From NCBI GenBank assembly GCA_008632985.1, contig QPGO01000030.1:1-63814 (forward strand): a stretch of DNA of 63,814 nucleotides, written 5' to 3'. A program made the position numbers and the translations under genes. This DNA is from Psammoneis japonica (lineage: Eukaryota). Below, one piece after another: positions 17,206-51,131 of the stretch (within the stretch, counting starts at the first letter, position 1; each line of letters begins with the position of its first letter). Below the pieces are notes generated by a model. The model saw only the letters and a list, made by a program, of their open reading frames with translations. It ran no database searches and was not told where the DNA came from.

Positions 17206-17595
17206 GGGCACAGAGCGCAGCAGCTTTTGTCTCTTGCAAACACGAGGTGATTTGACTGTGCATGTGAGACCCCTCTCATCATCAGGAGTTGCTTCTTTGA
17301 AGTCCAAACACATTTGTTTGAGCCGACAATGGCATTGGGTTGCCTGGCAGGCACAGTGGGCCTCAAAGCAACAGGGAGTCACCTCAAATCTGTTGAAAGT
17401 TGAAGCTGTCCCGTCGCGCTCGTGCGCGCAAGCGCGGTGCATCTGATTCCCACTGACGACTCTGGCGAAATGGACATTTTTGCATGCTGCAACACACGTC
17501 CGTTGAAGACATTCATTTGCCCTTTCCTCACATTAAAATGTTCAGCATCACATGTTGCATCTTGAGTTTACGGTCACAACTCAACGGACAACCGA

Positions 17596-17740
17596 CTTTC
17601 AACAAAAAGTTGTTGAAAGTTAGATCTTTCAACAAAAAAGTTGTTGAAAGTCAGATCTTTCAACAAAAATCTGTTGAAAGTTAGATCTTTCAACAAAAAT
17701 CTGTTGAAAGTTGCATCTTTCAACAAAAATCTGTTGAAAG
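17596..17740. repeat. Palindromic minisatellite, 5 x ~30 bp (ctttcaacaaaaa(gt/tc)tgttgaaag + 6-bp linker)
   Basis: Read directly from the sequence. Confidence 0.95.
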
Positions 17741-18770
17741 CCGACATCGTTTTTAGGGTTGCGCTGCAGTCGGGCAACACAAAAGTCAAAGATCGTGACG
17801 AGAACAGCATGAGCGATGCATGCCTTGCCAAAGCCTGAAAGCATGGCGTGAAGTTGGCTCAGCAGCTCAGTGCTGGTTTGGTGGTTTTTAGCAGAAGCAG
17901 TTTGACAATTTATGGCGGCAGTTTCAAAGGTTGTGGCTGCAGCTTCAGAGTGTAAAGCACGGCAGTTTCAGAATTTTCGGCTGCAGCAGTTTCAGAATTG
18001 TCAATTTCTTGAAATCTGCCAGCAGTGGAGCACCTTCAATGGCTCCAAGTGAGCCGCCGTCCAATGTGCTTTGAACCAAGCAAAGCTCCCACCTGGCAGT
18101 GATCTGTCTCCGATCTCACCCAGTGCGTGGTCAGGCGCTGTCTACAGCTCCAAGCGAGAATCATCCCAGTGCCAAACCATTGGCTGCTCCATCCTCTGAG
18201 CCTGGCAATCCCATCTGCCGTTCCGAGTCTGGGTCCCAGCATGCTGCACATTGGGTGGTTTCATCCTCGGATGAAAGTGCCAAGTCATGAGCAACTCCGT
18301 CAGTCACACCGAGGTGTGGACACGGCTCAACACGTCACGTCTCATTGAAATCAACAGAGGACTTAGAAGTGAGAATGTTGGTGACAGCACCACTGAGAAT
18401 CGAGTGGCACTGGCCTGCATGCTTCGTGCGCACTGTCAAAAAAAATTGAAATTGCTTCAAGGTTTCAAACAAAACAGAAATCCACAATTCTCAATGACGC
18501 ACAATGGGACCAACCCAGAAGGATGCATTGTGCAATTGCTCCCAACAATGAAAAAAGAAATGGGGAAAATGGTGCAAGCATCATTGAGATGTCACGCCAT
18601 GAAGTGGACACCGTCTGCTCGCTTCATTGTGCTCGCTGCAGTTTGCTGAGTGTGGCAAAGTGCTGCAGCAAATGCTGCACTCAACGATGAACAAATGTCG
18701 GTCATGCAAACCTGTCTTTGATGACATCGCTTTTCCAATCAGATTTTCATGCCGACAAGTTTTCTGTTGA

Positions 18771-18933
18771 AGTTGTTGAAAGTTACGTCTTTCAACAAAA
18801 AGTTGTTGAAAGTTGCGTCTTTCAACGAAAAGTTGTTGAAAGTTGTGTCTTTCAACAAAAAGTTGTTGAAAGTCACAACTTTCAACAAAAAAGTGTTGAA
18901 AGTTAACGACTTTCAACAAAAAGTTGTTGAAAG
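18771..18933. repeat. Second array of the same palindromic minisatellite (5.5 units, same orientation)
   Basis: ctttcaacaaaaagttgttgaaag units with linkers ttacgt, ttgcgt, ttgtgt, tcacaa and ttaacga. Confidence 0.95.
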
Positions 18934-19634
18934 TTATTTGGCGATAAGCTGCAAAGCTGGAGAAATGAGCTCATTCCTTTGCAGAGTGCAATTGTTCATT
19001 GCACATGTGTGATGGGCAATGGGCTAAATTTTGTACAGTCCAATTCGCCAACAGTGTCGTAATGCGGACATTGCAAAATTTTATAAAGTTATTCAAGAAT
19101 GGATCATTTCAATCTGAGTCGTAGTTTCAACAACTCTGAGGCGACTCCCAGAGGGTGGTGGCAAAAATGAGCGCGTCGCCACCAATCAAGAACAAGCGCG
19201 CTCGACCATCCTTGCCGTATCGCGAAAATTTTGCAGGGGTGAACAAAGTATCAATTTGTCTTCATTTTTGATAGTAAATTTTGTATCGATTTTGAGATCA
19301 GAAAGTATTTTGAAACCTTTCGAAACATTAAGGGCACCAATATGTAAATATGCCAAATTCTCATAAATACCCTTTATCTCAACGGTCTTCTCGAGGTTTG
19401 GCGCGTATTTCAAGTCTATAAAGCAAGCTTCTGACATATTAATAAAGTCTATACAGTAATATTTGTCCTATCGCTGTTGAGCGTTACTTTTGAAAAATTT
19501 AGTCATAGCACTCGCAAATGCGCGGGATTCGCCACGCCGTCGTTGACACTGTATCTATGATACAGTACTCTACGACGACAAGCTACCCAGCCTCCCTCTC
19601 AAATAGAGAACATAGACCATGACCTCCTTTCGTC

Positions 19635-22600
19635 ATGACGAGAGCTAGCTTCAAACCATCTCTCGTCCCCGTCATGTCTGCGGATCGCAAGCGAGAAAAA
19701 CCAGTTTCATGTTCGCTGCAACGTCTTCCCGATGGCGGAAGACAGTACAGTGACCAAGGTGAAGAAGACCAAAGACACTTTCCGGGAGATGTCAATCGGC
19801 GAGACTCGTCAGATAGCGGTTCAGACAGGAAGCGCGTTGATGAGCCGATAGAAAGGGAGCAGAGCGTTGTTGAGAGGCTTTCGATAGAAATGACAGAGGA
19901 AAGTTTTTGTAGCGAGTCGTATGTAGACACAAGACCGCACCATAGGCTAATGGACGAGAGAGGACACTCTGCGGAAGATGTTGTTGAGCTAAGTTACCGA
20001 GAATCGAGAAGTTCTATCAACAAGCGCGTTGATGAGCCGATACAAACGGAGCACATTGATACTGACGGGTTTTCGATAGAGATGACACAAGAAATTTTTT
20101 TTGACGAGCCGTACGAAGTTAGTAGCGAAGTAGTGTCAATTCCAGACGACTGCCCCAGAGACGCCGATGAACTAAATCGTTTTTGGCAGAGGACCGCCAA
20201 GAGCATGGCCAGAAGACCTAAAACCTACTTTTGGTCTGCCTTTCTGGCAGCATTGACGATTGCCTTCGTAGGCCTCTACTTTGGGAATTTTTCAGTTGAG
20301 CCCGACAACAGGGGATGGAATTCACGCGGTACACTTATTGCGGATCGTAACACTCAAGCGTTTTTGGTGGATGTGAACAGGTTTGATCTCTTCACTCGAG
20401 ATGAGGTTGTATGGGATAACTTGATAAACATCGTCCAACCGGGTTGGGAAACGAACGATGATGAAGGATCTCGACGGCTTCTGATCGACAGCGTTAGTCC
20501 TTCTGTGGCGACGTCTTCATGGCTTCAAACGATTGCACCCATGCAGTCTCTCCTTCCAGAACAGCCCAAAGTCGAAGGGCTACCATTTCCCTTGGAAGTG
20601 ACAGACGCGTTGAATCGTCGGCTGCTAAACGCAAGCACGATCAGCCTCTTGGAAGGATGCGACCTTTCCAGGTAGGTAAGCGTGCCCTTTATGTGGGTAC
20701 ACAAGCTGCAGCTTTTCTTTGACCCACCAACAGTGTAACCTTTTATTTTCTCTTGATAGATATGATGCCACTGGCTTGACAAAAGAAGGACGACTGTGGT
20801 CAGTATGGAAGACCCAAAAGTCTTCAGACTCCGCTCTCGACCCCCATCTTCTTAGGGATCTCTGTCTAAGTGAAGAGAAGACGCAAGCACATCTAGAAAG
20901 AGAAAGACTTTGCATTACTTGCAAGGGAGGGGGGTGTCTGCCACCCTATGGACTTGTGTTGTTTGCCCGGCTCACTGTTGCAGACGGTTTCACCATGACC
21001 TGTGATCAGCTAGCAGAAGCATGGCCCGAGTATCAATCATCTACCGAATTGCAAATGGCGAAATGCATTCAGGATTTGAAGCTCTCTTTTGATCCGAACG
21101 CCCCCATTGAGAAATTGCCCGCGTCTTGTCCTTTTGGCTTTTACCCTACTTTGGTTGATAAGCTGTTCGACTCCACCATGCGAGTAGAATATTCCGCCTC
21201 TATTTTTTCAACTATACAAAACCCAGATGCGTTGTTTGAAAAGGTTTCTGGCTATGATAGAGGAACCGAACTTATCAAGGGGGCATATGATACCCGCTAT
21301 GGTAACTTCGCATTTCTACAAACAGAAGTTTCTTTGTACAACGATATGTTGCTTGCTGCTGGGTCGGCCTTGATCACTGCTCTCGCGATTCTGGTGCACA
21401 CGCGTTCACCATTCTTGACGTTGGTAGGACTTCTCCAAATCATTCTCAGCATCCCCACTGCTTATTTTTTCTATGTTTTTGTTGCACGATTGGAGTTCTT
21501 CCCGGTTCTGAACTATATTGGGATCTTTGTGGTTTTCGCCCTTGGAGCTGACGATGTCTTCGTCGCGGTAGACAAGTGGAAGAATGCTCGTCTGGCACAT
21601 TGGGACAAGTCGACGGAATATGTTGCGGCAAAGGCCCTTCCAGACGCGGCTGGGGCCATGTTTCTCACAACCCTTACTACTGCTGTGGTGAGTACCGCAC
21701 TGAAGCCGGTAATGTGTCTTTTTTCTGTTCTTTTTGCTCTAAGTTTCTCATTGTTGCGAACTCCTACCGGTACCTGCAGGCCTTCTTTGGAACAGCGGTC
21801 TGCCCCGTTGCTCCAGTTCTCTGTTTTGCGGTGTATTGTGGAATTTTGGTTATCATGGATTACGTGTTATGCCTTGTGCTGGTATTCCCAGCTCTATGTA
21901 TATGCGATGAGAAAAAAGATGTACGAAACATTTGTTTCAATTGCCACGTCTGCCGCCAGCTTGAAGCGAAAGGCCCGCATGGAGAAGAAGACGATGAGAG
22001 ACCAAGTTTGATTCGCCGCATTTTGCTTGTGTTTTACAAGTTCATTCATCGATTCCGTTGGATTTTGTTGGCAGGGTGCTTGGCCGGATTCGGAGTTTCC
22101 GCTTATTTCGCTTCGAAATTAGGGTTCCCTGAATCGTCTGATGTCCGATTGTTACGTCCGGAAACTTTTCAATACGAGCTTAACTACGAGTGGCGCTTCA
22201 ATCTGCTCTTCGACGTCTTTCTCAGACAAAGCGGCAGTCAAACCTACCTCCTCTTTGGCACAAAAGCTGCTGACACTGGGAATCACCTCGACCCCAGAAC
22301 CTTGTCGCAGCTTGTCTTGGATGAAACGTTTGATCCGTCTGGTGAAGAGGTGCAAATCTATCTGCGTGGATTTTGTGACGATTTGTTCGCACAGGACTTT
22401 GCCGAGAAGCCTAACCCGGATTATGTCTGTCCCATGAATGCCTTTGATGCTTGGTTACAGCAGCAGTCCCAACTGGACCTTCCGGACGATGATTACCTTG
22501 AATTTTGTGGTGGAGCGACGGGACTACCGGTCAGACAAAGCAACTTCAACGCTTGCATGATAGCTTGGAGTCAACAAAGCTGGTTTAAGCCCATACTTGC

Positions 22601-23544
22601 GCGCGGCGACGTAGTAGAGATTATGTATGTGGAATTCAACAGCAAGGTTCGCTATGACAGTCCATACGAAGATATCAAGAGAGAGTGGCTTTTGACCGAG
22701 AAGTGGATGAAAAATCAGGCAAAAAACGTGGCCCCAGAAGGAATAGGCGAATTCTATACGTCATCTTTTGCTTTTTGGTGGTATGACACCAATAACGAAA
22801 TGTTGAGCACCACCTACGTTGCAGCTGCGATTGCTCTGGTTACGGCGGGCGTTGTCATTTTGTTCTCTTCCCATTCAGTGACACTGACTTTGTTCGCTGT
22901 GTTTACCATTGGGTTTATTCTGGCTGCTACAACGGCGTGCCTTGTCGGCCTCGGGTGGTCGCTTGGATTGTAAGTTGTTTGTGTCTGTCTTCCATTGTTT
23001 GTATGATTCGACTGACTTTTCTGAATTTTTTGTCTGGAATAGCGTGGAATCCATTTGTTTTGCCATTTTGATTGGCATAAGTTGTGACTTTGTCATTCAC
23101 TTTGCCCATGCCTACGCCACTCTCCCGGGTATGCACTCCCGCGATGAACGTACCAAACACGCATTGATTCTCATGGGCCCATCCATTCTTGCAGCAGCAT
23201 TCACAACGATTGCAGCAGCAATCATCATGCTTTTCACCGTGATAACGTTCTTTGAAAAGTTTGCCTCCATATTGTTTTTAACTGTTTTGCTTGCTACCGT
23301 GGGATCCTTTGTTGTTTTCTTGACCTTGGCCGACAGCATTGGCCCGACCCATCCAACCTTTTTGGTAGACCTAATGATGAACAAGTTCAGTCGACGCTGT
23401 AAAGGTTGCAGAACGAAGTCGTCCTTCTCAGCTGCAACCACTGAAGACAGCTCCTCTTCACAAGAAGACGACGACGCAAGTCAGTGCACTATTGAGAATA
23501 GGGTGAATCCGCAAATTAGAATACAGAATGAGTTGTACCGGTAA
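19635..23544 (+). CDS. Patched/Dispatched-like sterol-sensing-domain (RND) membrane protein, paralog 1; introns 20672-20759, 21688-21779, 22970-23042
   Basis: GIFVVFALGADDVFVAVDKWK (GxxDD), AGAMFLTTLTTAVAFF and ILIGISCDFVIHFAHAY (GxxxD). Three GT-AG introns give a continuous frame. Confidence 0.88.
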
Positions 23545-25860: not shown

Positions 25861-27099
25861 CACATGCTGTGTAGAAAGCACTCTTACATGTGTGAAACAA
25901 AAAAGAACACAACATGTGCTTCCACTCAAACCTGTGCAGAGACTCACGAAGACGAGCGCCGCTTCTGACATCATCTTGCGTTGAGTCGTGTTGTTGTGAT
26001 GATCCTCACAGCGACCCCGAGGCCTGCCCACAATGCACAGCATAGACTTGATCATGTGCAACTTGTGCCACCAACCCAGCTCAAACAAGACTTGAAATCA
26101 TGCCCCACACTGCTTTCCTCCACCAACTGTGCACTTGAGGCCAAGAACTCTCAACTGTGTTTGGCTTTCTTCGTCTCTAACATGTTTCCGTGCTCAACCA
26201 GAGCAATGATTGTCAATTGTTGAAAATTCCACACATCTGCCTGTTTTGTCCACCTGTCTTCTTGGTGAATGGATGCTCATGCTTGTCAGCAACAATTGTC
26301 AACTTTGAATTCACTCAATTGTTTTTTCTTGTTTTGAGCTGCCTGTTCTACATTGAGTCTGCATTGTTGTGAACTTGTTAAGTTTGCATGCAGTTCAACC
26401 ATTTTCTCTCCCATCGTCAGCTTGTTCTCTTCTGTCTTGCTTTGTTCATGCCACGTCTGTCCCTTTTTCCCCCTGCACACACCACAAGATGCATGCCGAC
26501 CTCAACTCCGACAAAGACAATGGTGCACCCTTGTCGCAATCCACTCTGTCCCGGTCAGATGTCTGACAACAACAATCAGTGTGCTCTCCAATGACATTTT
26601 CAGAGGTGTTCCCAGTGCTCTTCCTTCTTTTGTTTCCCCAGTGCTCTTCCTTCTTTTGTTGTGGCCTTGAGACGATGCATCTTCCTCCCCCCATTGCTCT
26701 CTGAGTGAGAACTCTGCCTTGTTCTCATTGGACGCATCTTTGCCTTCTGGCCAATCCCGCGATTCAAGCGCTGCAGGATTGCTGTTCCTGTCTCTTGATG
26801 ATTTTGATCCATCCTCTCTCTTTCCTGATTGCAGTGATCATGAGTGTCAACCCCCCACTCACGGTGACCCCTCCTCCATTGAATTGCTTTTGGAGTGTTC
26901 CTTTGAGGACACATCCACGATTTTCATGCTGCGCCGGAGCCTCCTGACAAACTCAGTGCTGGCAGTCCTGCCCAAGCTCTCAGCGGTGATCACATTTTTT
27001 ATGATGATGTTCTTCTCTTCAAGGAGGAGTTTGATGTGCTCTCAACACAACATTCCGTGTCATCCTCTGACATGGATGATGAGGCATTGCATCATTTTG

Positions 27100-27645
27100 A
27101 TGCACTTGAGTTGGAGGAGATGGAAGAAGCTCAACTGTTGCACCCTCCCTGCATTCAAGAAACCAATGCCACCAAGAAGCTTCATCCAGTGGAGGAAGAG
27201 TTGGTCATGATGATGAAGAAGCACCATCTTTCCCACGGTTTGTACAAGGCTTTCCTTTCCTGGGCTAAACGTGCCAAGGAGAGTGACTGTGAGTGCAAGT
27301 CTCTGTCCCATTCTACAGCCTTGCAATGCATGAAAGCCAAGCATTTTGATTTTGTTGGGCCAGAGCCCATTTGCTCCACAGTGAATTTGGGTCTTGATTT
27401 CACCCCAATGCATGTGTGCCATTTTTTCCTTTCTCCATCATGTGAGAAGGGTGTTTCATGATCCACAGGTTGTCCAGTCTTGTCAGTGGACAGACAACAA
27501 GAAGCACTGCTCCCAAATGAACGAATGCATTTGCAACTCTCTCAACACTGGCAACTGGTGGAAGCAAGCCGAGAATGATCTCAAATCTTCCCTTGCTGAA
27601 CTCAGCAACAACTGTCCATCTGGGTCACACCGTGTTTGCCCAGTC
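27100..27645 (+). pseudogene. Plavaka-like DNA transposase N-terminal relic
   Basis: Frameshifted translation ...GLYKAFLSWAKRA...HVCH/FSFLHHVRRVFHDPQV...ICNSLNTGNWWKQAE...RVCPV resembles the Plavaka 'l.tg.ww...piil' region and stops abruptly at ~27645. Confidence 0.55.
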
Positions 27646-29734
27646 AGGGAGGTCTCCAAGATTTGGCACCACAAGGAGAGGCAGCAGTGACAATGACAGT
27701 TGACATGTCTGGCTTGCTCACACAAGATGCATGGCTGCAATTTGCTGTGTTCCAGTGGGGCAGCAAGGGAGATGCATCAGACTCTGGCACATCCACCTGC
27801 ACCACCAAACATGTCGTCATTGTCAACCATAGAATGCTCTTGCCCCTCAGTCTCATCTTCCTCCTGTGCATCTGTGTCTGCTTGTTCTTCATGCTTGGAG
27901 GGTGGGAAAAGGATTTGTTTGGCTGGGGGAAGTGGGTTTCTGTGGCCAGTTCCAATGGTGCATTCCAAAAAATCAAGAGTGGGTCCAACGGGGACATCCA
28001 TTGCAAGAGAAACTGAACCTGCAGTTGCGGCAACAGCTGGCAGATTTGGTTCCTCTGAATCCAAATTGTTGTCAGAGGAAACAAAGGCAAGCCTGTGCCT
28101 GGAGTGGGGGTTGCTGGGATCATTCAGAGTCCCATCCAGTGCATGGTCAGAGGTTGCAACAATGTCGCAACACTTTGTGAAATGGGCAACATCCTGGGCA
28201 GCATGCTTCTGTTTCAATTTTGCCAATGGGACCTTGGCAAGGCAATGATTGCACAAATGGGAGTGTTCCTGAGAAACGTCCTCATTGGCTGCATCACTGC
28301 TTTTGGGCGCAACTGGCACATCCTCCATGTTGCACAAGCCATCAATCAGATCATCCTTGTGGTGCTGGAAGATGCATGTGAGGAGACACTTTACAGTGAT
28401 CAACTGTGTGAGTGCCTCCTGAACTGGACTGTCCATGCAGTGGGTCACAGTTGACCCATCCTTCTTGGTGTAAAAATCATTGACTTTTTGGTGGCTCTGT
28501 TTGCAGTCATTCATTGGCGTTCGCGCATGACAGAGACATGCAACGGCAGCTGGAGGCAAGAAAAACTCTGCCCACAGAGACAGCACCAGTCTCTCAAAGT
28601 GGCAGGTGATGCACAGATGGGTGGCTTTGCGTCAGTGTGTGCAACGGCTCTGTTTTCCTTGACAGCCAGTTCAACTCTGGTGGGACGGTCATTGAACAAG
28701 TTGACAGGAGTGCACTGACCTGTTGGAGATTCATGAACCACAGAGCCATCATGAGAGACAGAGAGAAAAGTCCAAAATGAGGGGAAGACAGTTTGCATCA
28801 CCTGGGTTGCCATGATTGGGTCCGCACACACTGCCACATTTCTCAAAAGTGCTGTCCAGGGCTGAGTGAAACAAGGCACTGCCGGCCTTGGGTGGCAGAA
28901 TGTGTTCAATTTGTGTGCGGATGTGGGAAGCAAAGGTGTTTTGTTCTTGATTCATGAAGTTGAGAGCCGACGGGCCAACCTTCTCCCAAAACTTTCAAAA
29001 CAAACTTCAGGTTTGTTCAACCATTTGTTGTCTGACCTCTCCTTGTCATTTTTTGGATTTTTTGGGAAGACATGTTCCCAAACCATCAGGGCAAAGGGAC
29101 ATTCAGAGTTGACACCAGCATCCAGGAGAGAGTGGCAATTCATGGTGTTGCCGATCTCTTGTTTGGATGGAAAACCCAGAGAGAAAAGAAGCGAACAACC
29201 AACTTTTGAGTTGCCAACCTTCTTCACAAGGTTGTTCTCCAAATTTGTCATTTCGCTGGCATGAAGGGGCTGTTTCTGGGCTTTCTGGAGTGAGGACATG
29301 GTCTTTTTTTTGCTGCGGCAATTTCTTGTGCCACAGTCCTTGTGCTTCTTCTGCAGTTTCTTGCACATCTTTTTGTTTTGGTTTTTGTGCAGGCCATGCA
29401 TCCGCCAGCAAAACAAAAGCCACACCCTGCAATCTTCACCGGACATTTCATGGGGTTGATGGCAAAAACGGCAAGATGCTCAGAGGCTTTGAGCAGATTC
29501 GGAGTCTTGCAAGAAGGGATTTTGTCACGCTCATTGAGAAATTCAACATCCTCTTTTTGATTGAGTGGGGAACAGTTCTCAGGCACATCATCAGAGGAGT
29601 CAACACTTCTTTGTTGGTGGAGGCAAGATTGGCGGCAGCAGCTGCAAGGTTGGCAGCAGGAGGAGCAGCCACGGATGGAGAGCCTTGTTGATGCTGAGGT
29701 CAGTCCCTGGTGCCTTGCCTGGGGGGTGGTCCAG

Positions 29735-30127
29735 CAGTGTTTCCCAAATGTGCATTTTTGGCTGGACCAAATTTGCATTTTTGTTGAACCAAAACACTTT
29801 TGTTGACCAAGTTGCCAGACCGACCAAATCAATTTGGTCGACCAAATTGACATTTGCGAAATCTCGACCAAATTCATTTCGTGCACATTTCCACACAAAT
29901 GATGCTGACACAGCTTCTACAAAATTTGCATGGCATGCAGACATGCATGTTTTCCAACTTTCCAGCCAACGGAAGATTCCTGCCAAAAGTGCGCCAAATT
30001 TCCCCGACCAAAATGACGTTTTCGGGAAACAAAATCATTTTGGTTGCGAGCTTCAAATTTGTCAACAAATTTGGTTTGACCAAAATGCCAATTTGGTCCA
30101 ACCAAAATGCACACTCGGGGAACACTG
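29735..30127. mobile_element. hAT-like MITE with ~55-bp imperfect TIRs
   Basis: Left cagtgtttcccaaatgtgcatttttggctggaccaaatttgc matches the reverse complement of right gccaatttggtccaaccaaaatgcacactcggggaacactg. Internal gaccaaa/tttggtc motif repeats. No clear TSD. Confidence 0.7.
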
Positions 30128-33100
30128 GTGGAAGGAGATTGGCCTGCTGTTCAAGCTGAACGAGCAGCAGCACCGCCACAACCTCCACAATGGCCACTGG
30201 TGCCACTGGTGCTGGGGGAAGTGTTGTGGCCAGCAGCTGGTGGGTTCATTTTCTTCCTTTTTCTTGGCGGCATGGTTGATGAGGAGCCAAATGGAAAGAA
30301 TGCAGGAGAATGAAGTCCCAGAGAAGGCAAAAATGTGAAATTGTCAATCTTGACAAGAGCAGTTTAATGTGACAATTTGACAAGTGTGGAGTGCACAATG
30401 GACACTGATGAACAGACAACTCATCAAGGTTCATTCAAAAATTTTCAAAACTTTGCATCACAAAAAAAAGATTGAATTTTAAAACAAAATGGGTGCAGAA
30501 AAAGAGACAGATGGGGAGTCAATGGAGATGGAGGTTCACCGTCAGGCTGAAAACACGAATTGTCCCTCCCTCACAAGACACAGAAAATGAAAAGTCAAAA
30601 TGATGAGCCTGGAGAGAGACAGTGACAGGCACGGCATGGCGGCTTGAACAGGATTAAATGCAAGACACACCAAAGGTGAGAACGACAAAACAAGTGGCGA
30701 GTGCATGGAGTCAGGACACGCAACCCAAACAACTGACACTTGCACGCACCTTTGCAAGCAGACGTCAAGACAAGTGCAATGGGAGCAGTGCCAAAGGACG
30801 AAGCAGCAATGGAAGATGGGCAGCAGGGACCAGTGATTAGGTGAGCTGAAGCAGCAAGTGAGCCAAGATTGCAGGACAAATGTGCAACAGCCAATCGTTG
30901 GCACAGCTCCATCTTCATTTGCAGGCAATGCTTTGAGCCAACAAAACAGGAGGGATGCAAAGATTGATTGTTGGAGGGGCTGTGTCATTGCCTGATGCAG
31001 ATGCACTTGGAGAGAGCAAGAGCGGTGTCAAGGGAGGAAACGGGGGACGAACTCATCACGCAGGTGGTGTCGGGACTGCAAAAGACAACAGGTGCTGGCA
31101 AATGCAGGAGATGGTCAAGAATGGGATGATGGGGACATTGTCAAGCATCTGGAACAGAAACAAATTGACAAGACATTTAGAAATTGTCATTGTTGCAAAT
31201 GAGCAATGCAAGGATGGTGTTGCAAAAATGTGGTTGTTGAGATCAAAACAGGAGCAAATGACAAGTTTCGCTGACCATCATTTCCCGCTTGGAAGGTCAG
31301 TTTAATTCTGGACAGATGCAAAATCAATGTTGAAATGTGCAGGAACACAGAATTGTCAAGAATGCATGCAGAAAAAGTGCAAAATCCATCAAGCATTAAA
31401 TCCCACTTGGAATGTTGAAAAAATGTTAAAATTGCTTCATGTGTGATTGACAAGCAGTTGTCAAGAACACAGGATTCTTAACAAGCAAATGTGAGTTCTG
31501 AACAAGAGCCACAATGTTTTCCAGATGTTCATGGTGAGCTCTCCTCTTGCTGGTGCTTGTGCCAGCCAACATCACAGCTGCTCTCGTCCTCTCCCACTCT
31601 GCCCCACACTCTTCTGCTTGTCAGGGATGTCCTCAGAGTGTGACTCAGTGTGCTTTTCAGCAGTGCTCCTCTGTTTTTTGTCTCCTTGCCACCACGCCCA
31701 TGTTCTCTTCCAGAGCATTTTGGCGCATTTCCTGCCACTCAAAAAGCCAGCTGGGCAGCCTTGTTGCCCCCATGTTTTCACCCCAATCATCTGGGGGCAA
31801 CCCCTCTCACCCTGCCCTCTGCTTTGCACAGTGACAGCTGCAGGTTCTTGATCTTGTTTCTTTTGATTTTTCTCAGGGCCAACACCTCCTCTCGCCACCA
31901 CTGCCTGCCCCAGGTTTGCCTGCTTCTTTGTCAAAACAAGAAGCCCCAGCATTGCTCCCAGTTGCTGGCATCAACTTTTTTTCAGCTGAACACAAACACT
32001 TTGTTTGGCAGCTGACAAAAAGGTTGTTGTGTGCCACAACAGCCCTGCTCCACTCATGCAGCAAAATGTGCTTAGCGCTCCCTCTGACAGCACAAACCAA
32101 AGAAGGGCTCCTTTGTCAAGAACCAGTGCAGTTCCCTTGCAGCGCTGTGCTTGCACTGGTGGGGCAAGATGTTGCTCCAAAATGAGCACACTCTAAAAGA
32201 CCAAAAGCCTTTTCTCACAACATGTTTGCATGAACCACCAGCACAGAGCCTGGCAAATCCAGGCAAGGCAACTTAAAGGAGTTGCCATGCATGTCAGACA
32301 TGACATGCTCACATCCTTTCTTTCCAATGTCCACAATGATGCCAACCCTTTTGTCATTCATGCAGATCCACTGGGCATGAGTCAGCGCATCTTTCCAGAT
32401 GCTCCTGCAGTGTCCAAGAGGTTCTTGGCTGGCAATGAAGTGTGGTCACATGGTTTCGAGCACACCCACTCACAAGAAACAACTGCAATCAGCTGTCAAT
32501 CCTGCCAGCCACATGAAACTTTAAACTTTGTTGTGCTGAGCACAAGGCAACAGTGGATTGCCAACTCTTCATCTTCTGCCAGCACATCTGCAAGAGAGAG
32601 CAACAATCTGCTTCTGTTGCCTGCTGGTCATCATGCCTGAGATCATCAGAGCATGAATTGCAGCAATTGAGGCTGCCTGTCTCACAGTGGTTTTTGACCT
32701 TTTCACAGGTGACAAAAAAGTGCTGCAACAGATGGATGGTTGTGCACATGGTGACAATGTGTGAACTGCAATGGACAAAGTTTTGTTGCCATGGTGTCTG
32801 ACCCTTCTCCTGTGAGAGCACTGTTTTGCTGTGAAACAGCCACCCAATTTCCCCATGAGAGTGCCCACCCTCTTTCCCTGCAGAACCTGACGATCAAAAG
32901 CATTTTCATTTCAACGTTGCACATTGACACTCATGTTTCATGTGAATGATGCGATGCATTGTGTTTGCAGTTTGTCAATGAATGCAAATTTGCTGCTTTG
33001 CCATGAGCTGTTCCACGTTTTCAACGGGCGCAGTTCCTTTGCCAGACTTCTGTGACTTCTTGTTCACTTTTGTCATCTTTGCTTGAACTGTCTCCTTCTT

Positions 33101-36100
33101 TGTTGTCTTCATTGTCTCTTCCTTTTCCTGTTCTCTCCTCCATGGCTGTTGTCCTTGTCATTGCCAGAAATCTCCACTGTGGCTTTTTTTGTCTCCTGCT
33201 GTGCCGGTGTTTTCTTGGTTTTAGCTTCCTTGCCCTTTTCATCACTTTTCTTCTTGTTGTTGGCACTGCACCCTGTGTTGAGCTGTGCACCTGGCTCACT
33301 TGCCCTGTTTTCCTTTGCTGCCTCATGCAGCTTGCTGAATTGCTGCACTCCTTCATCTTTCCACAAAATGCGCTGTCTCTTGACAGGTCAGTGTACAAGG
33401 GTGCTGGGGTTTCTTCCTTCTCCTTGTTGTTTCTGTCCTCATCTCCCTCTTGAATCTTCTTGTCCTTCATGGCCTTGCACTCCTGATTTTCTGGTGGTTT
33501 TCCAATGTCAACAGCCCCAGAGCCTTGTTCCTTGCTGCAGTTGGCTCTGTCACCTTGGCGTTTCTGGTCTTCACCATCTTTCTCTGCACAGGAGCTCTCA
33601 ATGAATTTTAGAACATTGTTGCAGAACCATGTGTGTGCTTCCTTGTTGGCCCATTTCTCACACACAATGGTGTTCACAGTCTTGTGCTCCAAGTTGGCAG
33701 GAATGGTTTTTCAGCATTGCTGCTCTTCTTTCTCTCCTTTTTTGCTTTCTTGTTGCTCTTTTCTTTTGCCCACAGATTTCCTTGGCTTCTTCTTCTTCTG
33801 TCAGCATGACTGGTGCTGGTGCAGATGAGTGCAATGTCAGCAGCATCATTTCCATTGCCTTGTTGGCAATGTGTCCCACAGCACTCACCACTCATTGCAC
33901 TCTTCATCATTGGCTGCATTGCAGTGCTCGTTTTCATGTTGATTGCATTGAGGCTGCACTTTTTTGCCTGGTCTTCCCACTTCCTTGCCCAGTCTTGCTT
34001 GCTGAAATTGCCACTGGCTGTGTTCTTGCATGTTGGCCATGAGACACCTTTCCATCACTCAGCATGTGTGCCTTGACAAGGAATCCTGCTTTCAAAGACA
34101 GCTCCATCCTGGCCACCTCTTTGATCTCTCTCCTGAGAGATTGGTTTGGTGGCTCATTGGCCAATGGTTGTTGCTTCCTTTTCTTCTTCCCAGTTGCCTT
34201 CACAGGTTGCAGTTTGTTGTGGACTTGTGTTGCAGCAAACGCATTGCATGTTGGGCTCTGATGAGGAAGCCCGGCATTGTTGATCCAAACCTTTTTTTCA
34301 TGCTGTGTTTGTGATGCTCTCACCAATGCTTTGCATGTCTTGACTGCCACCCAGCAAAATTAACAAATGAAGAGTTTTGATGTCAAGCAACAAATCTGCT
34401 GCTGTTTGCATGGTTTGTCAATGGCCAGCAATTGAACATTCAGCTCAAACTAATCATTTAAAACTGTCTGCAGACATTTTTGAATTTAATTTTTTGCCTC
34501 ATGTCCACATCATGTAAAATTGGCCAAAGTGCACACACAAAAATTTTTGTCTGCAAAAGTTTTTGTTTGTGGAATGAACAAATTGCACACAGCCTTCCTC
34601 ATTTTCACAGCCTGTTTTCAATGTGGTGCAACAAGTTTTTCCAGTCCACTGTCTTGCAAGCCTTGTCCAAAAGGACCATGCAAAAACCGCTTGCACCATC
34701 CATCGCAAGAACAACCAGTCATGTCATCAAGTGCATTTGTCACATCACAAACGCACTTCCACAAAATGCTTCACATGACTGTGACAGAGTCTGTCTTTCT
34801 TTTCTTTACATTCAAATTTGCAACGGCATCTTCTTGCTTGTTTTCACAGTCATGCTGGTGATCATGATGCAGCCTCTCTTTCCCAGATCATCTTCAATGT
34901 CCAACCATTGACCATCTTGGGAGCCAATGTGAAGAGCTCCATCCTGTTGCAGATCCAAATGTCTTTGGGCTTTGCATGAATTGATCCACAGTGGAAAATG
35001 ACGCCAGCTTCCTGGCATCAAAGTAATGCCTTTTTTGTCCATTGCAAGTCCACAAGCACCTCCAGAGCTGCCACCCATGAGGTGTCCACACTCTCCATTG
35101 TCATTCATTCCACAGGCAGGCAAGTGCCCATCCTTGAAATCTTGTTCATCTCATGAATCCCTTTTGTCCATGGCCAATCATGTGTCTTCCCCCTTGACCC
35201 AGCGGCACACTCATCTCTCAAGTGCTCATCATCTCCATGGTTTTCACAATGCAAACTGCACACTTCCCTTGCCTTTTCTGGCGGGTTTTGACAATGTTCC
35301 AAAACCCTGGTTTTGTGTGTGTTCCTTGCACATTCAACAATCACATTTTCCCAGTTTGAGTCATCATGGATGGAGAACACAGGTGTGGCAGCAGACATGT
35401 GCACCTGTTTTGTCTCCAAGACATGCCTTCATGGTGTCCTCCTTGGACCCAACTTCATCCAACTCAAAAACATGACAAGAAAGCTGTTGACAAATGTGCG
35501 CTGCTCTTTCTGGGTCATGACCTTCCAAAAAATTTTTGGGAACCAACAAATTGCATCATTTTTCTCATGTTTGATGTGATGCATGACTGTTTTGGTGACA
35601 AAGCATGTCCCATGAAGGTCATGTGCTTGGCTGTTGATCAGGGCAAGGAGACTGGTGCACTTCAAAAAATGCAAACAAGGCTTGCCTGTGAGTGGATCAT
35701 TGGGGTCCTTGCTGGCAAGACTTGGCCATTGCCTTGATGTTGTGGCAAAGGGTGTGACAATGATTCCTCTCCTTTCCTGTCTCTCCAGGTGTCAAGGAGA
35801 AGAACTTGTTGTCAAAGAACAAGTTCACCTTTTTTGCTGGATCTCTTCATTGCCCAACAAGAGTCATGATGCAAGACCACATGTCTGGACATCCAAGAAA
35901 TTTCCTTGCATTGTTGTTGGTGTGGACAGCTTCTGCAACACAGGGAACATGGCAAAGCTTTGGTTCATGGCAAAGGAAGGGAGGCACTGAGAATTCCAGA
36001 GAGGGCACCAAATTCATTCAATCCACACACTGCTTTTAGAGGCACACATTGCAGCTGTGCTTTTGAGCTTGGGTCCAAACAGCTTCACTCCAAAACCATC

Positions 36101-39100
36101 AGCAAAGTGTTCCATTTGATCAAAATTAGCATGTCATCATCAAAGTTGAATGAGGGATCAGGGTCACCTCATTGGCCAACAGGGCAAAGTTGTTGACTGC
36201 CATGGCTGGCTGAATGCACATGAATTGCAACAGCACATGCACTTGCCATTTGATTTTTGGGGAGAGGGTGTGCTGTTGTGAAGTGTGCACAAAATTGCGC
36301 TTGTAAAAAAGGTGCTAAAAACACAGTGGACAATTGGGCACAGAAATCTGGAATCAAGAAATGAGGGCAAGTGTGCACATGATGATGACTTGGGTGGGCA
36401 TGGACAAGATGCCAGTGTGCACAATGACACGTGCACAGGTGTGGAAAAAGTAAAAACCATGTTCAGCTGGAAAGCATCAAAAGAAAAGCCATCCATTTGT
36501 CACAAAAAACGCATGAAATGAAAAGCAAATTGAACATCAAATGCAACTCATTAAAGCTTTTGTCAGAAAAGGCAACAAAACTTCAGATGAAACACAAAAA
36601 TCAAAAGCATCACAAAAACCACTGCTGCTGACATTTTTTGCATTGAAGTGGTTGCAACTTTGTCAAAAAGTGCAAAAATTCACAAAGAAAAGCAGATGCC
36701 CCATGTTGCCCCTCTGATGATGGCTTGGCTTGTCTGCAGACTTTGTGCCTCCTGCACTTCATCTGACCAGGTTTTTGGCCTTTACTTCACTCAACCTTGT
36801 TGTGCTTCAGGTGTTTGCAAGTTTGCTCCAATTTGTCAACCTGCTTGGTGTGCAAAATGGACCACACCTTTTTCTTTCACACTGTGAGCTTTTTTGTGGC
36901 ACTCAGTCAGCTTGTGTTTTCTTCAGCCTTGATGTCATGAGGCTTGACCTGGGCATGTCTTTGTTGCAAATGCTGGCACCTCTTTCACAGTCATGCTCAT
37001 CAAGGGAGATGTCAACATCATGAGCATTGGCTCACAGCCATTTTCCTGCATCATCTTGCTTGACTTTTCTGTGTGAGATTGACTTGTTTTGTGTTGCTGT
37101 GCAAGCTGCAACTTTCTTGCTTCTCTCCTTTTTCTCTCAGCAGTTTGCACACAGATTGTGCAGAGCACTTGCTCTTTTTAAAAGTGAGCATTGCACCACT
37201 TGTGTGCCCTGCATGAGAAAATGCCACAAATGTTGCATTTTTGGGATGGTGGTGTGTGGTCCTTTCAGGCAGTCTTTCTTTGGCCAGTTGGCAAGTGCAC
37301 CCATTGACATTTTTTGTGCCTGACAGCTTTGAAAATCTGCACCTTGAAAGAAAACAAGTGGCTTTGTTTGTTTTTGTGCATCCCCAAATTTTGCACTTTG
37401 CTCTTCAAATAAACCCTGTTTGTTGTCACATTTGTGAAGAATGTGACCAACCACATCAATGGCCACTTAGAACAGCCACAAATGTGCTGTGGGCAGTGGG
37501 TTTCTTCACAACAGGTGGGAGCAATGTTGGGGAAAGACACTGCACAGAAAACAGGTCATTTCTGGTGTCTTCCAGAGCACGTCAAAAAGGTGTCTTTTGT
37601 TTCAAGGTGTTTGGGTTTTTCTCTTTTTGAGGGTCTTTCTTTTTGAGTTTTTTTTGTGAGGTGCAGCAGCTCTGGTGCTGAGCATGATTTGCACTGCCTG
37701 GCAAGACTGTGGCAGTCCATTAAATTTTCACAAGTGCTGCCATTGGCAAGTGCTGCATCTCATTCCTTGATGACTCTGCAGCTCTTGCAATGGGGAGAGC
37801 AGGCATGCATTTTGAGGCCAAATCAGGGGAGCAACAGGCATTGTTTGCAGGGACATGCAAAAATGGCTGCATCCAATGGGTGTCACACACAGCACCAGTT
37901 TGAAGATGACAGGAAGGAGATGGGCTGGTGTCCTTGGCAAATGTCATGTGGTCATGCAGCAAATCAAGTGGATTGCAAAAAAGATGCAAACATTCCTGAG
38001 TGACTGGGGTGCTGCAGACATTGTTGTCATTTGGACAAGCAGTGCCATGTGGCATGGGAAGCACCCCATGAGATGGACCAGGTGGATCCACTGAGAACTC
38101 AAAAGTCACCCTCACATCTTGTTAGAGCAGCCCTCCCTGACTGTAAATGGTGGAGGTTCAATGTGCCACTTGGCTGCTGTTTCTTTGTTCTTGTTTGCCA
38201 TTTGCTCATCACTTGTGACACATGCTTGTCTCTTGTCTGCTGTTTCACCTGACCAGACCAAGAGAGTCCTCAAGCCAGGACAAAGAGCTGTGAAGAACTT
38301 GCACACATGCTGCTTTTCTTGTGTGCACACTTGCTTGTTGTCTGCCACATCTCTTTCTTGCTTTGCTGCTCTCTCTTCTCCTCCCATGGACACACACCTT
38401 TCTCACCTCTCTTTCCCTCCCTTTGTTTTGGGAAATGTGGCATGCTTTTTTACCAGCAGCACATTTGTGCTCTTTTTTCCTCTGAGAGGGTGAAAGTTTC
38501 TTGTCACCCACCACCAGCGCTGTTGAAAGGTGCACAGCAGTGAGAGGCAAGTTCCAGCAAGTGCATTAAGGCAGCCAGCAGTGGTCAGCAAGGGACAGGG
38601 ACACACAACTGTCTCTCAAGCTCAGACATTTGTGCACATGACAACAACAAAATCAACAAGCATCAAAGGACATGCCTTTGCACAGGAGCCTCTTGTTTGG
38701 AGCTGCTGACAAAGCACTGCAGCAGGTTGCTTCTGAGACATTTGCTCTGCAAATGGCTGCAAGTGTGCCCCTTCCTGTCCGAAACAAAGAACTCTTGAAT
38801 GGCTGTTCATCGCAAAGAGAGTTTTTGGACATTCCTGCAAAGCAACAAATCAAGAGGTGCTCCTGGTGCCATTCATTTGTGTGGCACTTTAAAAAAATGG
38901 GGTGCACATCTGCAGTGCATCTGCTGATCTGATGCCTTTTGTTGTTTGCCTTTTTTTCAAGGCACTCTTGTGAGCAGCACAGAATTGCAGTGGCAGGTGG
39001 CAGGGCAGATCAGCAGCTTTTGTGAAAAGGAAGTGCCAATCAGTTTGCTTGGTGGCATGTGAGCCATTGGTCAAGAGTTGACAGAGTGCACTGGCTTTAA

Positions 39101-40714
39101 CATGATGCAACAAATGCAGTGTCATCTTGTCAGAGTGACACAGACCCCACTTCCCATCAGCTGTTGAGATCCAACGTGCCACCATTGGCCAAGATTCTGA
39201 ACAGTTTGTTGCTGTTGCAACTGTTGCAATCCCAAGACAAAATGAGCTTGTGCAGCGGGTTTATTTGGGTGGGTGCCAGCTCCAGGTGCTGCCCAGTCAG
39301 TGACTCTTTTTCGTTTTTGTGCTTAAAATGGTGGTCTGGAAATGCAGGAGCACCATCCTGGGCTTTGGACAGCCACAGGGTCAGAGAACTCACAGGAAGC
39401 AGTGCTGCACTGTGCTTTGGCTGCTGCACACCTGTCAAAGTGTCCAACACAAGGCCTTTGCCGCAAAGGGCCACTCCAGGAAGCCCTTGTGGAAAGTGCA
39501 ATGAGGCAGGAGGCCTTCAATGCAGGGGTGCTTGAGGTTCTTGTGACTTTGTCTTGAATTCCTTTGGAGTGCCTTGTCTGCAAATGTCAAAGAATGTTCC
39601 TTGAGCTGCGTCTTGGCAAAGCCCCCCTCAGCATTGTGCCTTGAGCAAGCCAAGGCATGGCCCTGGAAAGCCCTTGTCAATCTCTGCTGCACACTTTGTG
39701 CGAGCCCACATTTTGGCTTCATGAATCTGAAAGCAAGACATTCTCAATGCTGATTTCATCCATGTGAATTTCACCTCAAGGCCATGATGTTCTGTGGGAT
39801 GCTATGGGGCAGCTTCAAATGTCCATGGGTGGCTCTTTTGGTGCTCTGCCAGTGTGAACACAGAGAGCAATCTTTAGCTGGGCTACTTTTGACAGCTTCC
39901 AAACACAAGTGCTTGGGTTTTCTTCTTTGGCTGCAAATCTTGAAATTCCCACTCTGTGTGATGTCATGCAAGTCCTCAACAGCAGCAGGACAGCTCTCTT
40001 TTGGTCATCCCATCACAACAAATGACAGCACGGCTGAGCACTTTCTCCAAGATGATGCTGACAAACACCAGACTGCCAGCCTCAGCCAGTCTGGAACAAA
40101 TCATGTCATCATTCTTGGCCAGACAGGTGCCCAATGCAAGGGCATCATTGTTTGACTGGACACATGGACAAGTGTGCCATTGTTGTCAGTGGTGCAGACA
40201 AGCTCATTGGCAGAGTTCTTTTTGACTTGGAACATGAGGTTGGGCACACACAGGTTGCCATCCAGACACTCTGGATTTGTCCAAGTCACCCAAGCTGTTC
40301 ACTAAATTCTCAATGTGCATGACCACATTTAGCTGCCACATGGCCAGCCACCAGCCAACCTTCCAAGAAAGTGCTGACAACAGCCCCAACCATTTCTGGC
40401 AAAGCAGGTGCCAAGGATGCAATCACCGCAGCATTGTGCATCATCAGCACCGCCCTTGTGTCGTTGTTGGCAGCCGGCACTTGACTTGACTTCCTCACAT
40501 CTTTGAAGTGTTTTGGCTGGTTGTTGAGCTTGCTGTCTCACTCTCCAGGGGGCACTGGTGTGCAAAAGCGCCAGGTGCAAAAGCTGAGGAGCATGAAAAT
40601 GAAAAAGAGGATTGGATTTGCAGCCATTGTCCTTGCACAGTTTCCACCACAACAAGAAGATGAGCACCAACAAGCTTTGGTGCACAACGGGCATTGTCTT
40701 GTTCCCTGGCAATG

Positions 40715-41154
40715 TGCAACACACAGCCACTGACAAGAGCCAATGCATCACGGCGACGTGTTGCAGCCTTTAAATGTCACAAAGGGCGTGACAAAAATGA
40801 CCTTTTGTCTGCATGCATGCTGCACTGTGAATTCACAGCGGAGTGGTTCATCTCGCAACCATTGGGCAGGAGGCCAGGGGTTCGAAACCCTGAGTGGGAG
40901 TTGTCTGCAGCAACGTTGATCACTGTCGAACGCGTAAAACTCTGTGCAGTTCTGTGTGTTCCTTCGCACGCACCCACACTGTTCCGGCAAAACCGTGCAG
41001 TGTCAGCACACGTGAGCGTGGGTCGCGTGATGCATGGGGAGGAGTGCAACACACAGCTGCCAACAAGAGTCAATGCATCACGGCGACGTGTTGCAGCCTT
41101 TAAATGTCACAAAGGGCATGACAAAAATGACCTTTTGTCTGCACGCATGCTGCA
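40715..41154 (+). mobile_element. TRIM-like non-autonomous LTR retroelement, copy 2
   Basis: 110-bp LTRs at 40715-40824 and 41045-41154 (TG...CA), TSD AATG on both sides, PPT ggggaggag directly before the 3' LTR. Confidence 0.92.
40830..40900 (+). ncRNA. tRNA-like (Pol III type-2 promoter) sequence inside the TRIM; homolog at ~16890-16957 on the minus strand
   Basis: A-box-like agcggagtggtt and B-box ggttcgaaacc within a caggg/ccctg T-arm stem. The anticodon arm is not convincing. Confidence 0.6.
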
Positions 41155-42882
41155 AATGCCCTTTTCTTCGCTGTTGTTGCCTCTTTGATTGCCCCCAGCA
41201 ACAAGGAACAACAGCACACTGGTGCTGAGGGCAACCACACTGTGGCCAGGCCATGTGTGAGGAAAAAGGCCAGCTGCCCATGCTGCGTGTCCACTGCAGG
41301 ATTCCACAGAATCTCGTGAAAGCCACAGAAGCTGTTGCGCCCCCCCCCCACTTGTGTGTTGCTCTCTAACCCCCTTCAATGTGCCCTGTGTGCCAGAACA
41401 AAATCTGAGCTCCTTTCTCAGCAGGCAGTGGATTCTGCGTGCCTGTGTGTGGGATGCTGAGCAGCTTTCTTGAGAGCCATCAAAGGGTGCTAAGGATGGA
41501 GGGTGGTGGCTGTCAAACAAGAGCATGGAGTTGTCAGATGCCCTGGTGCATGCTTGTCAATGTGAGGAGCAGTGGCCTCATGGTTGCCGCCTCCCTGGGA
41601 TGACAACCAGCTTGCCTGTTGCATCTGCTGAGGTCATCTGCCAAGAGTGCTTCAATGTTGTGATGCACCCCACACAGCAAAACAGCGCTCATTTTGCAAG
41701 TCTTGTCAAAGGCATGGGATACATGGCAGAGTCCAGGAAAAGAGCTGTGAGATTGAGCCTCACCTTTCTGATGATCACCATCTCACTCTTGCCCACCCCC
41801 AAAAAACAGCAAGCTGTCTCCAACCAAAATTTGAGAAAAAGGCAGAGGGTCGTGCACAGAACAGCCTGTTGAACTTTCAGAACATGGCATTGTTGCAACA
41901 CTTGCAAAACCCAGTTGTGTCATCAGAAGCATGTCAAGCTCAACATGATTGAGTGTGTCAACAACCTGCGCACTGCCTGTTTTTTGCCGCACAGACAGCT
42001 GCTCTCTGCGCTGGTGTGTGCGCTCGGTCTCATCCAAAGAAAGTGTGTGCTTCACTTGTTCTCCACAAGCACAATGCATCTTGGAATGTGGCCAGTGTGA
42101 GATTGCATCCAGCCCCAAAAATCTTTGCTCTTGTTGCTCTGTGCACAGCTCTGCTGCTCCTGGCACACCTGGCTGGCACAAAAAGGGCAGATGTGCAGCA
42201 CTGCTGCAGCCTGGCTCCTGCCGCTGGCAGAGCAAGCTCAGCTGCAAGCAACACTTTGTGCTTGATGTGCACAGACAGCAACGTGCTTGGTCTGCACAGC
42301 AGCGATGCACTTGGTCTCCAACTGCAATGGTTGACAACCACCAAAGTCAAGGCCATTGGAGGGACCAACATTTTGGAGTGCTTGTGTGCAGGAACGTGCT
42401 CGCACACGAGAGTTTTGTGCTAAGCTGTCGGGATGTCATTATATATTCTTATATATATATTTTATTCTAACATCGGTTGGCGCCACATTGAGTACACAAA
42501 GAAGGATACTGAATAGTGACATATTGTGAAAAGATACCAAATCTCGATTTATAACCTAAAGATACTCATAGAGCATTAGCAAGCACAACCGTTACGGTAC
42601 ATACACATACGGTATATTTTTTGGAAATTTGCTCTTGCGCCACGAAAGAGAGGATCGTGAAAATGCATATACACATATAAAAATATGTATAGAGTCAAAT
42701 AACCCACGATTGGCGACGCATTGCGAAGAATCATCATCATACCGGTAGAAGGAGGACCTCCTAACATCAACAGGACACGCCACACCTCATCGTCCTACCG
42801 GTACCTATCGTTATCGTTGCTGTTTAGTTTTGTGTGATCGTAGGTATTGTAACAGGGAACATAACGGGGAGTATAAGGCACC

Positions 42883-46721: not shown

Positions 46722-47119
46722 TTGTGAATTTATGGCAATTCTCAATCCGATTACATCATATAATAGCACATGTGCTGCTCTATCCTGTGTTTCATTCGAG
46801 AAGTTATCCCTCTAGAGGGAACGTCATTTTTTCGATGTGCGACAAACAACTGTACAAAATGCGAGCTTCAACTGTACTCACAAATTCCTATAAAGATGCG
46901 TGACATTGGGCCAACTACATCGCAAATCTGAAAACAGCCATTGTGAATCAGTCATTATCTTCTCCATCCTCTACTGGTGATAGGATCGCGAGGATTATAT
47001 CTCTTAGCTATTTGCGCAACGCATTTTTTGCATTGCAACGGCATGTAAACCTCCATTCCTATTTCCGCAAGTGACGAATCATCCCGCATTTGCATTATTT
47101 ACAGTAATCTCAAATCTCT

Positions 47120-50321: not shown

Positions 50322-50469
50322 CAGGTTTTGCTTTTTTATAACTCTAGCACTGCATTACTCAGAACAGTTAGTTTGTAGTTGTTGTTCGTTCGCATTACAA
50401 TGTTGCTAGTAGAATTACAACTTGGTGCTTCACTGGACGGAGGGAGGGTCGTACCATAAATTCGAATAC

Positions 50470-50990: not shown

Positions 50991-51131
50991 GACATCCGTC
51001 TACAGACAAATGACGGGCAGACTAACGGTACGGTACGTACGTGCGTGCGTGTGTGTGTCGCTCGCTCGCCATCATGACACAACAAGAATCATCTCATCGT
51101 CGCTGACGAACGGGACGCCGTCGCTGCAACC

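Follow-up and report, generated by a model that had tools for sequence, protein, structure and literature searches.

Fungal repeat-induced point mutation (RIP) acts after insertion and places dinucleotide-specific transitions in repeats, with flank preferences and a short leakage. Its chemistry is given in the abstracts as a change of C to T. A second system, in the chlorarachniophyte alga Bigelowiella natans, is an A>G hypermutation at TpA only, striking the integrated DNA of nucleocytoplasmic large DNA viruses and of virophages; as far as it is described there, the rate per generation is raised ~1000-fold, the process is active in some lines only and ADAT2 is proposed as a candidate (Mettrop et al., bioRxiv 10.64898/2026.01.13.699255). 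The present study concerns the loss of TpA in a diatom, Psammoneis japonica, where the window—the whole analysed stretch of 63,814 nucleotides of contig QPGO01000030.1 (assembly GCA_008632985.1)—consists of host DNA, with 37–49 TpA/kb in long segments, alternating with sharp-edged blocks at ~4 TpA/kb, which are also low in CpG and high in CpA and TpG. The few TpA sites left in the core of the middle block (30360..40340) are read here, with a probability of roughly 0.6, as the slowest substrates of a hypermutator of repeat domains whose changes of A:T to G:C are confined to TpA. No report of TpA hypermutation in diatoms was found in the open-access PMC and bioRxiv literature, and the process is a variant, in a new lineage, of the one described once before, with a deaminase as its most likely agent.

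The stretch 30360..40340 holds 47 TpA in 9,981 bases, i.e. 4.7/kb. Sorted by flank, 19 of them are TTAA, 25 are one-sided (TTA or TAA) and three are VTAB, with neither flank (V = A, C or G; B = C, G or T), whereas a first-order Markov model of the stretch's own dinucleotides gives expectations of 5.5, 21.2 and 20.3, respectively (VTAB deficit, p=2e-8; TTAA excess, p=5e-7); if the flanks of TG, CA and TA together are taken as the null, the expected figures are 3.3, 19.4 and 24.3 (chi2 94, p=4e-21). The first-pass annotation, made by eye, had held that the residual TpA sites mostly follow a T or precede an A, that the type (A/C/G)TA(C/G/T) is very rare and that A/T runs are otherwise plentiful; the counts agree, with 44/47 and 3/47 sites for the first two claims and with 17.7 against 10.4 runs of at least four A or T per kb for the third, and all six motifs that it quoted (tttaat, cattaaa, acttaaag, ttttagc, tgtaaa, gctaaaa) are present in the stretch. 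The Markov-normalised count of NTAN that it proposed for block, genic and intergenic DNA gave a real bias in the block and the opposite one in the controls—the observed/expected ratios of TTAA and VTAB being 0.35 and 1.30 in genic open reading frames (ORFs), and 0.54 and 1.28 in an intergenic sample—and the equal depletion of NTAN classes after correction for composition, which it had set against its own claim, was not seen. It should be pointed out that the whole block is larger (Table 1) and that no other TA-poor DNA of the window is as extreme as this stretch; the remainder is milder (7/23/10 TTAA, one-sided and VTAB sites observed, 4.3/17.6/18.0 expected from the Markov model). The bias recurs in the pool of all 11 fetched loci related to a coding remnant within the block (48/95/39 among 182 TpA). 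The residual CpG, tested for the same flank bias, exhibits none.

A younger or allelic copy of the block was searched for in the genome and none was found, so that the rates were measured in other families. A copia reverse transcriptase search yielded three families (60 of the 150 matches being fetched first), and for the youngest of them all long matches were then fetched, giving 27 copies of a 6.6-kb element. In this family, A>G changes per 1000 site-copies amount to 56–158 after T and to 0.4–5.8 after A, C and G, the two other families having the same shape by preceding base. When 15 copies with moderate to heavy mutation are taken, A>G accounts for 2156 of the 2188 changes found at the A of TpA (98.5%), and A>G per 1000 is 394 for TA as against 15 for AA, 9 for CA and 8 for GA, i.e. 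a 26–52 fold excess. A likelihood fit in which the exposure could vary with each copy and 400-bp bin (266 sites in 26 copies, the copy C444 being left out for its flanks common with C118) gave rates at +1, relative to C, of 0.26 (0.17–0.31) for A, 0.41 (0.29–0.49) for G and 1.05 for T; at +2, A halves the rate (0.48) and G stands at 0.71; at −2, A has 1.61; and at −3, a purine raises it (A 1.93, G 1.43, T 0.63). For the target A the order is thus TAC, at least as fast as TAT, then TAG and finally TAA, with A-runs slowing it further. An exposure-free strand-choice test points the same way: in the youngest family the TAY strand (Y = C or T) was hit at 108 of the 121 decided sites (p=8e-20), TAC being chosen over TAA by 28:0, over TAG by 38:2 and over TAT by 28:9. 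Families 2 and 3 have the same order for most pairs, TAA and TAG being near even in family 3.

TpA being palindromic, a site lasts only if it is slow on both strands. TTAA reads TAA on both of them, and TTTA/TAAA is slowed via +1/+2 on one strand and via −3 on the other. Among the ten duplex tetramers, retention in old blocks relative to the host goes from 0.58 for TTAA down to 0.006 for ATAC and ATAT, and it falls with the independently fitted copia rates (rho −0.92); in 30360..40340, 25 of the 234 sites of the slowest decile are still TA versus 2 of the 590 sites of the fastest quartile, host DNA being flat. A simulation with the fitted rates takes the shares of TTAA, one-sided and VTAB sites from 5/30/65% to 22/44/34%, an end state resembled by the five copies with the heaviest mutation, where the 108 ancestral survivors divide into 23/50/35; these copies have 156 TpA in all, and the new ones are few and come mostly from CA/TG. 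As for the tetranucleotide preference suggested by the first-pass annotation, the preference for flanks holds and the recognised tetramer does not: the survivor bias is a graded preference, a rate rule applying to the target A of each strand.

That there is no preference at all, the pattern stemming from a composition rich in A/T runs, from new TpA, from GC-biased conversion or from a sequencing artefact, has practically no probability. The block is indeed rich in A/T runs, and about one third of the TpA in the heavily hit copies are new (48/156), yet the bias survives both the Markov and the product-flank correction, and a context-free simulation leaves TTAA at 4–5%. Generic GC-biased gene conversion, already set aside in the first-pass annotation, is excluded, as the acceleration concerns only the A in TpA, GC is not raised (0.464 vs 0.477) and CpG is lost. 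In three places, 556, 820 and 713 bases long, contigs of a public run, possibly the window's own source, are identical to the block (0 other letters).

Protection by A-runs can be followed directly: VTAAB was kept at 47 of 4104 sites (1.1%), VTAAA at 91 of 2001 (4.5%) and TTTAAA at 19 of 91 (21%). This bears on a further explanation, according to which the requirement for TpA is enzymatic and the flank effect is mostly one of DNA shape, rigid A-tracts stiffening the TpA step, which then resists base flipping or access whatever the agent. The longer the run on either side, the stronger the protection; a run (TT before or AA after) is touched by 34 of the 47 survivors, and an additive base model under-predicts TTAA; the choice of TAC over TAG within one duplex—38/40, 24/28 and 35/38 decided sites in the three families—involves, however, no A-run and indicates a strand-specific readout of +1. 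DNA shape is improbable as the principal cause of the flank effect, although it is compatible with the slow-substrate reading as a second layer. The enzymatic specificity that had been deduced from the flanks is less secure, as the shape or accessibility of A-tracts could yield part of the pattern and no enzyme is linked to it.

Concerning the place of action, each mutated copia copy was hit on both strands (strand ratio 0.9–1.2), with 0–2 double changes per copy, and a search for same-strand runs or clusters of changes found none. The long terminal repeats (LTRs) of one element are identical at insertion, and in 20 pairs the 5' LTR lost 92 TA and the 3' LTR 21; at one locus, hits in the unique host flank amount to 4 of the 9 TpA lying within 500 bp of the element and to 0 of the 60 in the 2 kb beyond. 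The unequal loss and the hit flank together imply action on chromosomal DNA after insertion. A leak of 1 kb into the host DNA was also considered; comparison with homologous DNA lacking the element on that side reduced it to 500 bp. In 17 of 17 copies with an overall loss of 0.05–0.75, the fitted domain starts at most 750 bp from the 5' end and its front lies at 0.4 to 6.5 kb, the loss being typically 75–93% inside and a few per cent outside, and none of these copies has a 3'-only domain. The searches favoured intact 3' parts; since they also recovered copies with as little as 83% identity there, 3'-only copies should have turned up. One copy, C119, is mutated throughout except its 5' end, and no 5' gradient was found at the remaining sites of families 2 and 3. 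CpG decays in the same domain, with 50 transitions per 1000 inside versus 6.5 outside; this decay is ~15-fold weaker than the loss of TpA, reaching 50–70% only in the oldest copies. The descriptive part of the reading—hits on both strands after insertion, the flank rate rule, the stop after one hit and the 5'-anchored domain with lagging CpG decay—can be stated with high confidence.

The same counts bear on ADAR-like editing of RNA, or of cDNA during retrotransposition, fixed by reverse transcription. Its attraction is the preference of ADAR for a 5' U/T and its ability to act on the DNA of hybrids, as reported in PMC5389660; the strand ratio of each copy, the difference between the two LTRs of one copy and the hit host flank nevertheless refute an RNA stage, and this explanation is extremely improbable. 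Editing of chromosomal hybrids, from both strands, by an enzyme of the ADAR fold is possible and is counted under the hypermutator. The process shares with ADAR on DNA:RNA hybrids the best neighbour, a 5' T, and a diatom-wide ADAR-fold gene exists. On DNA, the reported editing by ADAR is, however, best at TAG (94%) with AAG close behind (81%) (PMC5389660), whereas TAG is slow here and AAG is at background.

With RIP the diatom process has in common a dinucleotide-specific hypermutation of repeats after insertion, flank preferences and short leakage. The direction differs, since RIP creates TpA, by C>T mostly at CpA, and the process in question destroys it: TpA falls here, CpA/TpG rise, and C>T outside CpG is equal inside and outside the domain. 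Nor is there a sign of the homology trigger, the two LTRs of an element having lost TA so unequally and duplicated genes having kept theirs. The duplicate of the Patched/sterol-sensing gene (Table 1), 80% identical over 2.6 kb and 90% in parts, is untouched, with a normal TA density in both genes, and homology alone is thus not the trigger.

Taken together, chromosomal DNA is mutated after insertion, on both strands and hit by hit. Once one strand has been changed, the site is no longer TpA and the process stops there; TTAA and sites touching A/T runs, slow on both strands, outlast the rest. In young copia copies it covers one contiguous domain with a 5' start, a variable front and little leakage into the host, and this domain may correspond to silenced, CG-methylated chromatin nucleated near the promoter of the element. 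The latter suggestion draws on Phaeodactylum, where CG methylation by DNMT5 is reported to repress young copia elements (PMC9998398), which makes silenced chromatin a likely domain. The agent would be a zinc-dependent adenine deaminase, either of the TadA/ADAT2 type or a diatom ADAR-fold paralogue, converting dA to dI in transiently opened DNA, to be read as G at the next replication; for the deaminase step itself, the chances are about even.

The genome carries an ADAT2-like, a TadA-like and two ADAR/ADAT1-fold genes, these labels being a reading of motifs. One of the latter two is located on C40 and the second at L125:3172-4888 (G000:C79); the C79 gene is widespread and conserved in centric and pennate diatoms, and a scan of two exons showed no RNA-binding domain in it. 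The 8 of 27 DNA-methylase matches examined include no fusion of a deaminase with a methyltransferase. An open frame at L102:313-1785 joins half of a deaminase domain to a 2-oxoglutarate-Fe(II) oxygenase. Near-identical C5 DNA-methyltransferase genes (L147, L148 and L149, on G000:C301 and C297), related to the intact gene L143 and belonging to a family with 27 matches in all, lie in TA-erased but CG-retaining DNA; they are possibly transposon-borne or duplicated methyltransferases that are being mutated themselves.

To our knowledge, the targets of eukaryotic ADAT2/3 all follow U33. The process has in common with TadA and ADAT2-ADAT3 the T/U at −1 and a pyrimidine over a purine at +1, and it differs by a near-absolute T at −1, by no preference for G at +2 and by its substrate, the natural enzymes acting on tRNA. 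The natural target of TadA is given as U-A-C-G (PMC10586758) and the order for a TadA-derived editor as YAY>YAR (PMC12528748). Of the two spectra put forward for comparison in the first-pass annotation, that of the TadA type fits in part only and that of DNA polymerase eta fails.

The case for the polymerase would be one of error-prone patch repair at WA hotspots (W = A or T), as in somatic hypermutation. Somatic hypermutation takes place downstream of a promoter, of which the 5'-anchored domain is reminiscent. TA is moreover a double WA hotspot, as noted in PMC7884765, and the A>G figure of AA, 15 per 1000, slightly exceeds those of CA (9) and GA (8). Nevertheless, the AA hotspot and the mixed substitutions are not what is found: AA lies 26-fold below TA (15 vs 394 per 1000), 98.5% of the changes are A>G and strand clustering is lacking, which makes this origin very improbable.

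A mutagenic base mark at TpA in silenced DNA, either a modified T such as 5-hydroxymethyl- or formyl-uracil or N6-methyladenine, with a flank preference of its own, is an unlikely alternative. Read from T, its rule would be RTA > CTA > TTA (R = A or G); an epigenetic mark would account for the symmetry of the strands, for hits that are independent and for a domain that spreads, and the products TG/CA are the same whether A or T is modified. On the other side, the genome gave no match to TET/JBP, a weak argument as the control query was likewise without match, the symmetric N6-methyladenine of eukaryotes is described at ApT rather than TpA (PMC7145601), and ApT is not depleted.

Returning to the slow-substrate reading and its deaminase, several results speak against it. 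The fitted rates predict 5–9 TTAA and 16–18 VTAB where 30360..40340 has 19 and 3, and simulated TTAA reaches 14–22% versus 40% there; the shortfall is probably due to a non-additive effect of A-tracts, to a poor prior from coding DNA or to the choice of the most extreme stretch. The intervals of the fit come from a bootstrap of sites and not of copies, some of which share a history (C334/C27; C118/C444/C244), and in the strand-choice test the event counts of TAA and TAT tie in families 2 and 3. A weak A>G excess inside the domains at non-T sites before C or T (VAY) is confounded with the 5' non-coding region, and four fully mutated copies did not reproduce it. CA, which editors of the TadA type accept as well, is at background here (9 vs 394 per 1000), and the clusters of hits on one strand that a deaminase of single-stranded DNA could be expected to produce were not found. 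The deaminases of the genome that were found are ordinary or common to many diatoms, with none tied to the process, and sequence alone cannot tell the attacked A from the paired T.

The comparison with B. natans is the closest one. Both systems share A>G/T>C changes only at TpA, on both chromosomal strands and confined to foreign or mobile DNA, as well as TpA-poor clusters rich in CpA and TpG. The diatom differs by its host lineage (a stramenopile), by its targets (retrotransposons and other repeats) and by near-complete erasure, and also by the flank hierarchy, the 5'-anchored domain with a front and the coupled CpG decay; the main text of Mettrop et al. does not contain the words 'trinucleotide', 'context', 'flanking', 'CpG' or 'diatom', although its table S2, which lists 231 mutations, could hold flanks. 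TpA hypermutation as such was therefore already known, and the additions made here are a table of rates drawn from many copies, a test of strand choice, a quantitative connection between rates and survivors, shortfall included, and the 5'-anchored front. The mutation list of B. natans is directly comparable with this table, raising the question whether the same machine works in two distant algal lineages, and any candidate enzyme or mark has to match the table from −3 to +2, with its strict T at −1 and its order at +1. The front and the lagging CpG decay point to silenced chromatin at the promoter end of the element, and TpA and CpG decay offer two clocks for dating insertions. The erasure of TpA also accounts for the failure of annotation to pick up the diatom repeats studied here and for the scarcity of tyrosine in old active families. 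Adenine editing of DNA has been engineered from TadA, and the evidence for natural counterparts is thin. It is conceivable, though we advance it tentatively, that diatoms possess a natural adenine editor of DNA, guided by chromatin. It would be a deaminase preferring (R)NTAY, nucleating near the transposon promoter, spreading, acting on both strands and sparing TpA shielded by A-runs. If so, it would be the first natural enzyme to edit adenine in genomic DNA at such a scale, and, if common to the chlorarachniophyte, it would represent a genome defence across stramenopiles, alveolates and rhizarians that mirrors RIP.

Table 1 Features of the window referred to in the text
Feature	Position	Strand	Basis or remark
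TpA- and CpG-depleted block enclosing the survivors	26023..42391		65 TA and 173 CG in 16.4 kb; sharp edges; two-state segmentation
Survivor stretch, core of the middle block	30360..40340		47 TpA
Degraded coding remnant of a dispersed repeat family	35406..36488	-	similarity matches
Stretch common to locus L008 (70%)	33226..34145		L008 is one of the loci of the 35406..36488 family
High-copy repeat	40714..41154		second copy at 16626-17072
Short element with 85-bp inverted ends (80% alike)	29730..30132		directly left of 30360..40340
Second TA-poor block, with 30-bp tandem arrays	15158..19025		two-state segmentation
Third TA-poor block, cut by the window end	62162..63814		two-state segmentation
Patched/sterol-sensing gene (control)	20797..23418	+	duplicate at 43975-46628

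With regard to the individual features (Table 1), the family of the coding remnant was listed at 39 other places with 66–72% identity, 11 of which were fetched, all 11 being TA-poor; its protein has unnamed relatives elsewhere and no Pfam family. The stretch shared with L008 probably belongs to the same element, as judged from the sequence similarity. No real Pfam family was found in 39 ORFs of the block, in 34 ORFs of related loci and in the six read-through frames of 35000-36600, the atlas searches gave no usable match and no RNA dataset was listed as carrying the block. The TTTAAA site of the high-copy repeat (40771, 41101, 16678 and 17015) is retained in every copy compared and is thus an inherited survivor. 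In run X1 the repeat has a summed depth of >60,000; it is TA-free yet has kept many CpG, and is thus younger than the surrounding block.

Several observations concern the block edges and the copies. The first TpA within the left edge of the block (26043-26044) is TG in a contig of run X1, i.e. a polymorphic target at the boundary. Exactly matching block contigs within 27659-32652 have a depth of 33–35, the flanks being at 60, and the block may be present on one haplotype only or differ between alleles. The copia copy C92, 5'-truncated and unmutated, was considered as a natural experiment and rejected, its missing part being an N gap and its 3' flank being different; it was kept in the rate fit, where it has no changes and hence no weight. 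Two copia families (L047 and L070) have open frames of ~1950 codons although they are TA-poor, with tyrosine at 1.0–1.5% versus 3.2% in the young TA-rich family (L023), and one copy of these TA-poor families reads HVDD at the reverse transcriptase motif; the TA-rich family may be a recent arrival.

The genes flanking the block are eukaryotic housekeeping genes, among them one for a gamma-tubulin complex protein, the named relatives of which are diatoms, mostly pennate, at 36–44% identity. Within the second block, two arrays of 30-bp tandem repeats, partly palindromic, occupy 17575-18935. Two intergenic patches elsewhere in the window (47001-48000 and 50001-51000) are enriched in TpA (observed/expected 1.29) and consist of AG/CT-rich simple repeats.

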